From positions 3,552,001 to 3,616,000 of the forward strand of contig CBDHHL010000032.1 in the NCBI GenBank assembly GCA_965263355.1: DNA of 64,000 bases, given 5' to 3'. This document shows positions 54,129 to 63,934 of this stretch, piece after piece. Below the pieces are notes generated by a model. That model had not been told where the DNA came from. It did no database searches and was given only the letters and a program-made list of their open reading frames with translations. A program made the translations under genes and the position numbers. How positions within the stretch are numbered: the first letter of the stretch is position 1; each line of letters starts with the position of its first letter. The DNA comes from Leptolyngbyaceae cyanobacterium (lineage in GTDB: Bacteria > Cyanobacteriota > Cyanobacteriia > Phormidesmidales > Phormidesmidaceae).

Positions 54129-54935
54129 CTACCAAATACGCGGACTAAAGTCAGATGTATTACTAATTTCTACGCTGTCACCAGATTGTTGAATGACATA
54201 CAGTCCCTGATTATGGGCATAGGTATCCACATCTTTATCAATTTCAATGGCGGCGACTGCCCCATAGAGGCGATAGCTAGCGTAGTGGGGAAAGGCAGCC
54301 TTAAATTGCTCTAAACAGCTAAGTACCTGACGAACACTATCTTGGGTGAGGCGAGACTTGACTTCGATAACAACAGCCACATCGTCATTTACAACCAAAA
54401 TATCAATTTCTAAATTACGTTTTCCTCGGGCAGACCGCACCCGCTGATACACCTCCTGCACCGCCATGCCCTGTGCTTGAAACAGTCGTAACGCTGCCGG
54501 AGCTACCAAATTTTCAACAAATCGTCCCCAGCGGCTACCCAGATTATTGACGGTTTGACTTGCCTGGGCCGCTATAGCCTCTGCCTTGGCAAGACGTTTT
54601 TCTGACTCAGCCGCCCGTCGATCAAATTCGGCCCTGGACTCAGCCATACTTTGCTCAAATCTAGCCCTGGACTCAGCTATGCTTTTCTCAAGATCAGCTT
54701 TTGATTGAGCGGCCCGTTTATCGGCTTCGGCGGCTCGTTTATCGGCTTCGGCAAACCGACGGTCTGCTTCGGCCCTGGATTTGGCCATGCTTTGTTCAAA
54801 ATCTGCTTTGGATTGTGCAGCTCGTTGCTCAAATTCAGCAGCACGCCGATCCGCTTCGGCAAACCGACGGTCTGCTTCGGCTTGGGAGCGTTCAAATAGG
54901 GCGTAGATATCTGCAAGCGTAACGGACTCGGACAT
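54129..54935 (-). CDS. Repeat coiled-coil protein with C-terminal PD-(D/E)XK nuclease-like domain (DUF3782-like)
   Basis: AEADRR repeats, then WGRFVE, EIDIL, VIEVKS. Confidence 0.85.
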   Translation of the reverse strand: MSESVTLADIYALFERSQAEADRRFAEADRRAAEFEQRAAQSKADFEQSMAKSRAEADRRFAEADKRAAEADKRAAQSKADLEKSIAESRARFEQSMAESRAEFDRRAAESEKRLAKAEAIAAQASQTVNNLGSRWGRFVENLVAPAALRLFQAQGMAVQEVYQRVRSARGKRNLEIDILVVNDDVAVVIEVKSRLTQDSVRQVLSCLEQFKAAFPHYASYRLYGAVAAIEIDKDVDTYAHNQGLYVIQQSGDSVEISNTSDFSPRIW

Positions 54936-56732: not shown

Positions 56733-57905
56733 TTAAGCTATCTGTTGTACAAAATCGTTGAGGCGCTCCATACCCTTCTCAATGGTAGCCATATCAGTGG
56801 CGTAGGAGACGCGAATACCGCTATCGGCCCCAAAGGCGATGCCTGGAACAGCGGCGACATATTTTTCATTGAGCAATCGGGTGCAAAAGTCTAGGGACTT
56901 TAAACCTGTTTTACTAATATTGACAAACAGGTAAAACGCTCCTTCTGGCGGTAAACAGCTGAGGCCAGGGATTGCATTGATTAGATTGACCATGGCTGTA
57001 CGCCGTTTGGCAAATGCTTGGCGCATGGTTTCGACACAATCTTGGGACGATTCCAGAGCTGCGATCGCACCATACTGGGCAAAGGTACACACATTAGACG
57101 TGCTCTGGCTTTGTAAGGTGTTGGCCGCCTTAATCAGTTCAACTGGTCCAGCCAAATACCCTAATCTCCAGCCAGTCATGGCGTACGCTTTAGCAAATCC
57201 ATTACTGACAATGGTCCGCTCAAACATCGCGTCACTAACCGCACCAATGCTGAGGTGTTGGGCCCCATTGTATAAAATTTTCTCGTAAATCTCGTCGGCA
57301 ACGACCCAGATATCATTGGCTACAACCACCTTGGCTAAGGCCTGAACTTCGTCTGGCGTGTAGACCATACCAGTGGGGTTAGAGGGAGAATTAAAAATGA
57401 GAAATTTGGTTTTGGGCGTAATCGCCTGTCTTAGTTGCTCAGGCGTAATCTTATAGCTACTTTCTGCGGTCGTCGGTACAATCACTGGCTTACCACCAGC
57501 GAGCTTAACCATTTCTGGGTAGCTCACCCAGTAAGGTGCTGGTATCAGCACTTCATCCCCCGGTTCAAGGGTGATCATCATTAGGGCATAGAGGGAATGC
57601 TTGCCGCCGTTAGTAACGATGATGTTCTCAGGGTTGTAGGGTAAACGATTGTCAGTGCGTAGCTTTGTTGCGATCGCGGTCCTCAATTGAGGTTCCCCTG
57701 CAGCTGGTCCATACCGGGTTTTACCATCGTCAAGAGCCTGTTTAGCCGCGGCACGAATATGGTCTGGAGTATCAAAATCAGGCTCGCCAGCACTGAAACC
57801 GCAAACATCTAGTCCTTCAGCCTTCATGGCCTTGGCCTTAGCCGAAATTGCCAAGGTCATTGAAGGTGTTACTTGCTGCACTCTAGCAGCTAATTTGATA
57901 CTCAT
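56733..57905 (-). CDS. aspC: PLP-dependent class I (aspartate) aminotransferase
   Basis: [35 protein letters not shown]. Confidence 0.9.
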
Positions 57906-58021
57906 TAGAACGCTGTTGGCCTCCGGCTCAAAACCCTATTCTGATTAGCTTAGATCGATTTGTGATGGAGATCGCAAATCTTTATGATTTGCTTGAATCA
58001 TGCTCTGTCGCTGTACCAGCC

Positions 58022-58051
58022 AAAAAAAACTCCCCTGTGTTATCAGAGGAG
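58022..58051 (-). terminator. Orphan Rho-independent terminator
   Basis: Minus strand CTCCTCTG-ataaca-CAGGGGAG-TTTTTTTT, about 430 nt from the nearest upstream stop. Confidence 0.8.
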
Positions 58052-58140
58052 CTTGTGTTCTTGATCTGTGTGAAGGAAACGGTGTGAGGAGAGTTTGTCA
58101 TGGGCAATGCCCAGGCAAGATCCCAATGTAAGGAGCACAG
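58022..58140 (-). ncRNA. Candidate Yfr1-like small RNA (5' end uncertain)
   Basis: Hairpin TGGGCA-T-TGCCCA, then single-stranded CTCCTCACAC, then the terminator. Confidence 0.5.
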
Positions 58141-58255
58141 CTCGTACGGCAAATTGGCTGTAATAACTGTGATGATGCTTTTCAGGAACTCCAATGTTTG
58201 GATTACATCCAACTATCGGATTGATTTAATCATCTCCCAGATAGAGTGGCCTTGA

Positions 58256-58359
58256 TGTGATTTCAGGGTGCAAAAATTGTGATATCCCAGTCTGTTATCG
58301 GTGATATCAGGGAGAGTTATCGGTGATACTGATTGTGTGGGTGTGTGAGCGATATCACT
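58256..58359. promoter_or_regulatory. Array of five 22-bp-phased CRP-type half-sites ending in a near-perfect CRP box
   Basis: GTGA starts at 58257, 58279, 58301, 58323 and 58345; the last unit is TGTGA-gcgata-TCACT. Confidence 0.6.
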
Positions 58360-58483: not shown

Positions 58484-59257
58484 CTAAACCAATAACCAAA
58501 TGGCCAATCCCCAAAACGGAATAAACCGTAATGCTCGACGTTGCTCTTCTGCAGGAATAATGGCCCCCATCAGCCAAATCTGAAACACCCAGAACAATGT
58601 GATATCAACGGTGAATGCCAGGGTGACCCGATTATAGAGAATTTGCTGACCTAGATCCCTAAAGCGACTTAACACCCCGCCCAACTCAGGCCTATTAAAG
58701 CAAAACCAGATAACTGCCAAATTCCCAACGGTCAGACCTAACGCGCCAAAGCAGCGAGCCAGTATACCTTTGCTGGCTACGCGAGGAGCATACACAGGCT
58801 GCCTCAGTCGCAGTGCCATATAAGGCATTAAAAAAACATTGGTGAGCAACATTGCCAGTCCCCAAAGCATCAGTTTGGGTAGACCCTGACTACGCTCATC
58901 GATGAGCATCAGGGGTAAAAACATAAAAATCCAGGCTTCTGCCAGATTAAAAAAGCCTTGGGCAGCGGGATTAACCATGGGGGCTTGCATGTAGCTAAAC
59001 CCCAAAACGTTTAACAAGGGCAGAATAAAAAAGAAATTGAGAGATTCATTGAGAATCTCCCGGATAGTGTCGGGTTGGATGGCCCATATGGGTTCCCCTG
59101 GTAACCAACCAAGTGGTGACAGTAGTAGTAGGCCAATATAAACGATGGTTGCTGTCCACAACAAAGCAAACAGACTGTTCTGGCCTTGTCTAGTTGCGCA
59201 TAACGAAGATTCAGACGGTGTTGGTGAAGGGGGGATAGGCGGGACTGACTTACTCAT
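58484..59257 (-). CDS. Conserved multi-TM membrane protein
   Basis: PGEPIWAI, ESLNFFFILP, TNVFLMPYMALR, RFIPFWGL; ATG at 59257 overlaps the upstream TGA. Confidence 0.8.
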   Translation of the reverse strand: MSKSVPPIPPSPTPSESSLCATRQGQNSLFALLWTATIVYIGLLLLSPLGWLPGEPIWAIQPDTIREILNESLNFFFILPLLNVLGFSYMQAPMVNPAAQGFFNLAEAWIFMFLPLMLIDERSQGLPKLMLWGLAMLLTNVFLMPYMALRLRQPVYAPRVASKGILARCFGALGLTVGNLAVIWFCFNRPELGGVLSRFRDLGQQILYNRVTLAFTVDITLFWVFQIWLMGAIIPAEEQRRALRFIPFWGLAIWLLV

Positions 59258-59688
59258 TTTTGACGTCCCCACCAATAACGTACTAAAGGTGTCACCAAAC
59301 GGATAATAGTGAATGCGGCTTTCCCAGGCTTAAGGGGCGGCTCTACACAATCACGGGCAAAACTGAGTTTGCCATTATTAGGGGAAAAACGATAAAAACT
59401 CACACCCCGCCCATTGGGAAAAGGGATGCCACTAAGTTCAATATGCCAGGTCACACCCACAGCTAAATCATCTCCGGCAATATCATCAATGACAAATTGT
59501 AGATCGTCCGGAACTGCCTGACATGACTCTGTAAATACTCCTTCTACCGCTGCTTTACCTATAAAGGTGGCAGAAAAGTTTAAGTCTTCATAACAGCATT
59601 GGTCGTCAATTAGGGTAACTGCCTCGGCAACATCCCGATGATTAATGGCTGCGTACATGGCCCGAATCCGATTGATTGCTTGACTCAT
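59254..59688 (-). CDS. SnoaL/NTF2-like protein
   Basis: MYAAIN.RD, YEDLNF, FVIDDI, GVTWH, PFPNGRGVSFY, RDCVEP. Confidence 0.9.
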   Translation of the reverse strand: MSQAINRIRAMYAAINHRDVAEAVTLIDDQCCYEDLNFSATFIGKAAVEGVFTESCQAVPDDLQFVIDDIAGDDLAVGVTWHIELSGIPFPNGRGVSFYRFSPNNGKLSFARDCVEPPLKPGKAAFTIIRLVTPLVRYWWGRQK

Positions 59689-59766: not shown

Positions 59767-59804
59767 TGTGATTGTTGTCACAACTATTAGTGATTGTTGT
59801 CAAA
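59767..59804. promoter_or_regulatory. Perfect CRP box plus a degenerate tandem copy
   Basis: TGTGA-ttgttg-TCACA (59767-59782) and AGTGA-ttgttg-TCAAA (59789-59804). Confidence 0.65.
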
Positions 59805-63852: not shown

Positions 63853-63934
63853 GCGGATGTGGTGGAATTGGTAGACACGCACGCTTGAGGGGCGTGTGGC
63901 TTATGCCATGCGAGTTCGATTCTCGCCATCCGCA
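63853..63934 (+). tRNA. tRNA-Leu(GAG)
   Basis: GCGGATG acceptor stem, anticodon arm CACGC-TT GAG GG-GCGTG, long variable arm, GTTCGA T-loop; CCA not encoded. Confidence 0.97.

Follow-up and report, generated by a model that had tools for sequence, protein, structure and literature searches.

What is encoded in the 578-nt gap that separates a membrane-protein gene from a class I/II aminotransferase gene in the 64,000-nt stretch of DNA analysed here (the window)? An earlier, sequence-only reading had placed in this gap a candidate Yfr1-like small RNA, read from the minus strand and carrying three anti-Shine-Dalgarno-like motifs, with a small hairpin among them and a terminator at its end. We refer to this element as X. 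The strings from which it was recognized, together with the two neighbouring genes, are as follows.

58484-59257, minus strand: membrane protein, upstream neighbour of X, without a Pfam family and often fused to a SnoaL-like domain in relatives
56733-57905, minus strand: class I/II aminotransferase (aspC-like), downstream neighbour of X
58222-58022, minus strand: predicted non-coding RNA X, about 201 nt, with a presumed start 7 nt downstream of the -10 box and its end taken as the T8 tract
58135-58127, minus strand: motif 1, CTCCTTACA, located by string check; kept as written in only 3 of 21 copies, as CTCCTT in 17 of 21
58113-58101, minus strand: hairpin string TGGGCATTGCCCA, located by string check; kept in 1 of 21 copies
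58091-58082, minus strand: motif 2, the Yfr1-like CTCCTCACAC, mostly unpaired and complementary to the 5' arm of Yfr2
58078-58068, minus strand: TTCCTTCACAC, located by string check; kept in 16 of 21 copies
58060-58079, minus strand: motif 3, TTTCCTTCACACAGATCAAG, for which a one-bulge pairing with the Yfr2 5' arm is possible (-12.2 to -16.1 kcal/mol)

All of the listed strings were located on the minus strand where the earlier reading had put them, and CTCCTCACAC does match the Yfr1 sequence ACTCCTCACAC at 10 of 11 positions, ACTCCTCACAC itself not occurring in the window. One such 10-mer in 64 kb is close to what chance would give (an estimated 0.1); the element rises above chance because it is conserved: its intergenic DNA, at 74-85% identity, is present in 20 of the 150 family genomes. 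The family search was centred on two genomes related via the membrane protein; among named organisms, this protein comes closest to those of Leptolyngbya sp. PCC 7375 and of Leptothoe-like genomes (65-80% identity). The aminotransferase, used as search bait, gave no close relative (best 75%). A covariance model of X built from 21 sequences, which are close kin and not independent events, strongly recovers the same 20 of the 150 family genomes, and among 151 genomes of the class it has strong matches in two of these 20 only. Of 82 loci that were also scored, 80 of them taken from the 115 matches of a pattern scan of metagenomes, eight were strong matches, which may overlap genomes already counted. 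Strong matches are thus confined to one clade, and X is therefore clade-restricted within the searched set.

Whether X is a paralogue of Yfr1, as had been proposed, can be judged from its size, layout and sequence. Yfr1 is 54-69 nt long and carries an ultraconserved 11-mer, ACUCCUCACAC (PMC2190773), in a stretch of 16-20 unpaired nucleotides between two stem-loops, whereas X measures about 201 nt between its predicted ends and is predicted to fold into a multi-branched structure, with the motif in an unpaired stretch of about 26 nt within a long-range helix. The 11-mer ACUCCUCACAC is found in one of the 21 X copies, the 10-mer in 11 and CTCCTCA in 17. What X does share with Yfr1 is the CU-rich CUCCUCACAC, unpaired before an intrinsic terminator and complementary to the 5' arm of Yfr2. 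With this wrong length and layout, and no match to the Rfam Yfr1 model between 57500 and 58800 even at E ≤ 10, the proposal of a paralogue is not supported; at gathering score the whole window likewise contains no Yfr1 (RF01116, cut-off 38 bits), the sole Rfam match being a tRNA gene at 63853-63934. A separate canonical yfr1, for which a check had been suggested, is present in all five relatives tested (49.7-51.3 bits). X is not Yfr1. Nor is there support for three anti-Shine-Dalgarno seeds as its core, since motif 1 is variable and partly paired and motif 2 is degenerate in about half of the copies, and the proposed hairpin cannot close over a loop of 1 nt, folding giving a loop of 3-4 nt instead. 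The other half of the original idea, a free-standing non-coding unit of about 200 nt behind the proposed -10 box, has held up, and we now turn to the features that bear on it.

58229-58234, minus strand: -10 box GAT(G/T)AT, at -12, 22 nt behind the proximal TCAC
58190-58220, minus strand: predicted 5' nested hairpin with two TCC/GGA stems; its pairs do not vary except that in 9 of 21 copies G-U replaces A-U
58102-58112, minus strand: predicted small GC hairpin capping an internal stem, no pair changed on both sides
58022-58052, minus strand: intrinsic terminator from the terminator scan, 6 of 11 pairs changed on both sides

The -10 box reads GATGAT in 18 of 21 copies and GATTAT in three, T8 lies at 58029-58022 as described, and the terminator, recovered independently by the scan, is indeed remote from the end of the upstream gene, about 430 nt from its stop. 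A coding role for X was ruled out, no start codon having a conserved frame length across the 21 copies, and for the same reason the 76-aa ORF at 57982-58212 is incidental. At the level of structure, the fold of a 216-nt stretch beats its shuffles (z -2.90, with 1 of 200 equally good), and in the predicted helices of the X body G-U exceeds A-C by 46 to 14, as expected for a minus-strand RNA; outside the terminator only two pairs of the body have changes on both sides. TTTCCTT, ACAGATCAA and GGAGTTCCTG each occur in all 21 copies. X is accordingly predicted to be a free-standing non-coding RNA gene, and judged by comparison only it appears to have its own promoter, its own terminator and no coding frame, as would a sponge RNA.

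One could also speculate that X simply belongs to a neighbour, as 3' UTR of the membrane-protein transcript or 5' leader of aspC, since all three lie on one strand. An RNA contig of a near relative, from a sediment metatranscriptome (180 nt, depth 3.2, covering 58113-58262), moreover starts 40 nt ahead of the predicted X start and is therefore an ill fit to a discrete transcript from that start; it may represent DNA or read-through. Three runs of unspecified type contain the DNA and may be its source. All 20 relatives have the aspC-like gene downstream of X, with a spacing that shifts by about 135 nt among them, and 17 of the 20 have the membrane gene upstream. In the other three the array described below, the -10 box and the RNA are intact with no membrane gene found within about 1.5 kb upstream, which argues against a mere 3' UTR. 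In 4 of the 20 relatives about 100-130 nt of extra sequence part the terminator from the block upstream of aspC, a further point against this explanation, which we regard as very improbable. The block in question (57905-58000) is conserved, contains two inverted repeats and moves with aspC upon insertion after the X terminator; it likely represents aspC's own promoter and operators. On the other side of the gap, the SnoaL-like and membrane-protein genes (58484-59688) are separate overlapping ORFs here and form a single fusion of about 390-400 aa in many relatives.

The predicted promoter of X has a second component, a regular series of half-sites of the CRP type.

58256-58348, minus strand: five TCAC half-sites at 22-bp spacing (58348, 58326, 58304, 58282, 58260), each in 20-21 of 21 copies
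58345-58358, minus strand: full CRP-type site GTGA-N6-TCAC, the distal member of the array; GTGA in 21 of 21 copies, TCAC in 20 of 21

Relative to the predicted start, TCAC stands at -38, -60, -82, -104 and -126 in 20-21 of 21 copies, and the distal GTGA at -136 to -139 in all 21, its TCAC at -126 to -129 in 20. The CRP consensus is TGTGAN6TCACA, located about 22 bp before the TAN3T box in CRP-activated promoters of cyanobacteria, as described in PMC2633013; the distal site fits this consensus, the spacing of 22 nt from the proximal TCAC to the box matches, and the proximal TCAC would centre a CRP-family dimer at -41.5, the class II position of CRP. At four of the five positions the right half-site alone is conserved, the full site lying four periods upstream of the proximal one, and because these four keep right half-sites only, the assignment to the CRP family is one that we infer. 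The array is the only one of at least three sites on either strand of the window, a three-site TCAC pattern matches only the X locus in each of five genomes, and each of five relatives has 10-15 matches to a CRP-type helix-turn-helix. From these sites we infer that the X promoter would be loaded by a CRP-family protein; a five-fold phased half-site promoter is an unusual architecture. A perfect CRP-type site also lies at 59767-59782, between divergent SnoaL-like and TPR genes (and in the relative L121), where it may control the operon running towards X.

If X is neither Yfr1 nor a by-product of its neighbours, what would it act on? The most conserved part of X, TGGAGTTCCTGAAAA, which the sequence-only reading missed, is present in 21 of 21 copies (two with a change tolerated by G-U pairing), and it is complementary to the 5' end of a second predicted small RNA, which we call Y.

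58193-58179, with an extension to 58172, minus strand: anti-Y site, a 15-nt perfect complement of the Y seed plus an imperfect 7-nt extension
58057-58064, minus strand: imperfect copy of the Y seed within X, which would mask part of the anti-Y site through a predicted long-range helix with 58189-58182

The string TTTTCAGGAACTCCA in Y is the exact reverse complement of the invariant site of X. Nineteen of 21 copies match the Y seed exactly at the anti-Y site, and the other two have an A>G change that keeps a G-U pair, so that, G-U included, 15 contiguous X-Y pairs are available in all 21. Searching five relatives for the 15-mer within one mismatch gave 11 matches, five of them antisense in X, five in Y and one elsewhere. 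The exact 22-nt head of Y is found in 18 of the 20 X-bearing relatives and was not found in two. When X was cofolded with Y of the same genome in five genomes, the energies ran from -14.1 to -18.2 kcal/mol while shuffles averaged near -5, with 0 of 12 shuffles as good in each genome (the shuffle sets being small), and the predicted complex replaces the internal masking helix of X. As both seeds are invariant, X and Y show no compensatory change, and the lone A>G change in the anti-Y site also fits the internal helix of X. In the relatives, X carries a conserved complement to the seed of another predicted small RNA, as a sponge is expected to do.

The invariance of the 15-mer could have other origins. 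It might be a relic of an origin of X in part from a Y copy, kept for the internal long-range helix of an RNA that binds a protein. The covariance model of X does detect Y, through the 3' end of X, at 22-30 bits, and the internal helix (helix 3: seven pairs, 95.9% paired, no pair changed on both sides) is predicted in most copies. However, the helix is imperfect and uses 7-8 of the 15 bases, whereas all 15 match Y, even those predicted to be unpaired, and variation is seen in the internal strand but not in the anti-Y strand; we consider a relic improbable. Alternatively, the 15-mer could be a DNA site, an operator or pause element functioning in either orientation at two unrelated promoters and involving no RNA pairing. 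Its location just downstream of the predicted starts, at +30 to +44 in X and +8 to +22 in Y, would suit such a role, but it is non-palindromic, constitutes most of the unpaired part of Y, and is followed by partial, G-U-tolerant pairing: the extension forms a mean of 4.6 of 7 pairs against 2.9 expected, and two different extension sequences each retain 5 of 7 further pairs. A DNA site is for us barely credible.

The predicted pairing between X and Y directs attention to Y itself, which consists of an invariant 22-nt head (searched with a 21-nt probe) followed by a terminator, about 52-56 nt in total, and usually lies behind gltA. A 14-mer of Y occurs in 137 of 150 family genomes against 8 for a control (the matches being partly checked), and the 21-mer in 53 of 151 class genomes, about a third of those sampled, against 1. 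Of four named genomes searched, Leptolyngbya sp. FACHB-8 contains Y, while the assemblies of Nostoc, Rivularia and P01_D01 gave no match. The 68 distinct copies include 64 with a -10-like hexamer, 60 with a U-tract and 54 that follow gltA; as copies elsewhere keep the head and change the terminator, Y is not merely the 3' UTR of gltA. Of the weak matches to the X model outside the clade, seven were examined (L482 and L483 left out), of which five are Y and two plain terminators. Across the class, 110 places with the 13-mer were examined and divided into 43 in Y, 50 in long ORFs and 17 outside both, none of these 17 resembling X by eye (40 listed and 76 further places left out).

A GGG-N5-CCC box, the pattern needed for HetR binding (PMC4649674), starts at -48 to -51 in 63 of the 68 distinct Y copies, compared to 0.9% of random 70-nt pieces of the window. 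Within the 151 class genomes, hetR is present in 52 of the 53 that bear Y, and Y in 1 of the 62 without hetR, while 37 hetR genomes have no Y match and shared ancestry inflates the association. Given its invariant head, its occurrence almost only in hetR genomes and a HetR-type box at a fixed promoter position, Y may matter more than X. To our knowledge, the role of HetR in filamentous cyanobacteria without heterocysts is still unclear; Y would be a direct candidate HetR target, and X a natural inhibitor with which to probe it.

A pattern search found no mRNA target of Y, with 9 matches against 19 in the control; one of the 9 precedes a long ORF. The sequence CUGAAAA is common to X and the anticodon loop of tRNA-Phe, but Y as an antisense RNA to this tRNA was rejected: there are 9 contiguous pairs, and cofolding yields -0.3 to -1.5 kcal/mol versus -15.9 for X. 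In a few ORFs of other cyanobacteria (L237, L238, L269, L314, L315, L230) a 13-nt complement of the Y seed lies just before the start codon, and two of the proteins so preceded are similar, about 57 aa long and encoded in one genome; these ORFs are possible Y targets or chance. The Y loci (L195-L199, L211-L234 and others) are mostly 3' of gltA. Three X-bearing genomes (L340, L362, L363) have second Y copies with other terminators and no HetR-type box, two of them with one seed change, and at G746:C566:20670-20811 two Y 14-mers on the same strand, 128 bases apart, are perhaps tandem Y genes.

The CU-rich 3' part of X raises the question of a second partner. Yfr2 (Cyano-1, RF01701) traps Yfr1 through a short conserved complement (PMC6778093, PMC6974561), the same kind of pairing between small RNAs that is predicted for X; X differs in bearing the motif of the Yfr1 side, not of the Yfr2 side, and in having Y as its best partner. 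Each of five relatives has one Yfr2-like gene, which passes the Rfam cut-off in one of the five. Duplexes of CTCCTCACAC with the Yfr2 5' arm reach -9.7 to -19.7 kcal/mol; the exact 13-nt complement of motif 3 was found in five genomes only in X itself and at one other place. Cofolding of whole X with Yfr2 gives -13.2 to -16.4 kcal/mol (shuffle means near -9, equalled by 1 of 60 shuffles), a weaker interaction than that of Yfr1 with Yfr2 at -22.7 to -22.8. Perhaps X sponges Yfr2 as well. Pairing of X with Yfr1 was discarded, the cofold energy being just 0 to -3.3 kcal/mol. The upstream regions of yfr1 and yfr2 in the clade (L155-L159, L162-L166) share a GGGGATG(G/A)CAAA-like motif.

These same motifs permit the reverse reading, in which X is an mRNA regulator resembling Yfr10 or SyR5, acting through its CU-rich 3' motifs on ribosome-binding sites and switched off by Y and Yfr2. 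The Yfr1 motif outside yfr1 is by itself not new, because small RNAs carrying it in other structure and synteny have already been published, namely Yfr10, Syr5 and two Nostoc RNAs, all blocked by Yfr2 (PMC6778093), with the two Nostoc sequences given in Table 3 of PMC4734099. Like X, Yfr10, Syr5 and the Nostoc RNAs TSS 2515196r and 3750139f are lineage-specific and hold the motif in another structure and locus than Yfr1; the two Nostoc RNAs, at 57-63 nt and with no anti-Y site in the published sequences, are unlike X, and Yfr10 and Syr5 are set beside it by description, not by sequence. That the 3' motifs of X are mostly unpaired, that TTTCCTT is invariant and that the X-Yfr2 cofold falls below the shuffle means would all agree with such a regulator. 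Against it, 10 of the 21 copies have a degenerate Yfr1 10-mer, X-Yfr2 pairing is the weaker one described above, and Y occurs in many lineages where X was not found, so that Y cannot exist mainly to control X. Complementarity alone does not tell which RNA controls which, and we judge this reversal unlikely, though the least so of the alternatives to a sponge.

It is the difference in distribution that points the other way: as Y is broad and X narrow, X is most likely adapted to Y. Our preferred reading, to which we attach reasonable though far from full confidence, is that X is a predicted non-coding RNA of about 200 nt, peculiar to one clade of filamentous cyanobacteria, that would act as a sponge, binding and neutralising Y. 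A CRP-family protein would load on the 22-bp-phased TCAC array and activate X from the class II position; Y would then dock on the unpaired, A-rich end of the anti-Y site and displace the imperfect masking strand of X, and the resulting duplex would take Y away from its normal targets. The CU-rich 3' motifs might provide a weaker additional site for the Yfr2 5' arm, or could pair with ribosome-binding sites of mRNAs as in Yfr1 and Yfr10. With a HetR-type box in Y at about -43, X would give a second signal the means to overrule a small RNA that depends on HetR. More tentatively, and with clearly less confidence than in the sponge as such, we can conceive of X and Y as an undescribed pair in which Y is an ancient, HetR-controlled small RNA of hetR-bearing cyanobacteria, most of them probably non-heterocystous, and X a clade-specific sponge with two partners, Y and Yfr2, its Y site covered by the internal mimic until Y displaces it and its expression driven by a CRP-family protein assembling along the five phased half-sites.

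Sponges of this general type are known from other bacteria. RosA of Bacillus subtilis is a sponge for RoxS and FsrA, and resembles the predicted X in that it is non-coding, stands alone, pairs with two or more small RNAs and answers to a global transcription factor; this factor, CcpA, represses RosA (PMC8216469), in contrast to the predicted CRP-family activator array of X. RosA has been shown by experiment whereas X is a prediction, and no sequence relation between the two is expected. QrrX of Vibrio cholerae, acting on the Qrr RNAs, and SroC of enterobacteria are sponges that act by pairing and promote decay of small RNAs (PMC13501541); SroC is cut from an mRNA 3' region, while X has its own predicted promoter, and both differ from X in partners and phyla.

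Neither X (in the window) nor Y (three loci, E ≤ 0.5) has an Rfam match, and the motif strings of both are absent from the searched paper texts, sequences inside figures lying outside that search, and from the supplements of PMC4734099, PMC6596454 and PMC6091082. In the literature on gltA, sponges and Leptolyngbya small RNAs, including the available parts of PMC10287535, PMC6091082 and PMC12873609, no such RNA was found; PMC12873609 describes a screen of 202 cyanobacterial genomes, the supplement of which may list Y. Most probably, X is a previously undescribed sponge, restricted to its clade, whose partner is a small RNA not yet catalogued. The trap between cyanobacterial small RNAs in the searched literature is that of Yfr2 on Yfr1 and Yfr10, to which X would add a stand-alone sponge with another partner. 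If true, the X-Y pair would connect, through RNA, signalling of the cAMP type with the networks of HetR and of Yfr1/Yfr2.

Elsewhere in the window, a 268-aa ORF at 54129-54935, whose N-terminal part is charged and repetitive and which has a weak match of restriction-endonuclease type, lies antisense between two ABC permease-like genes.
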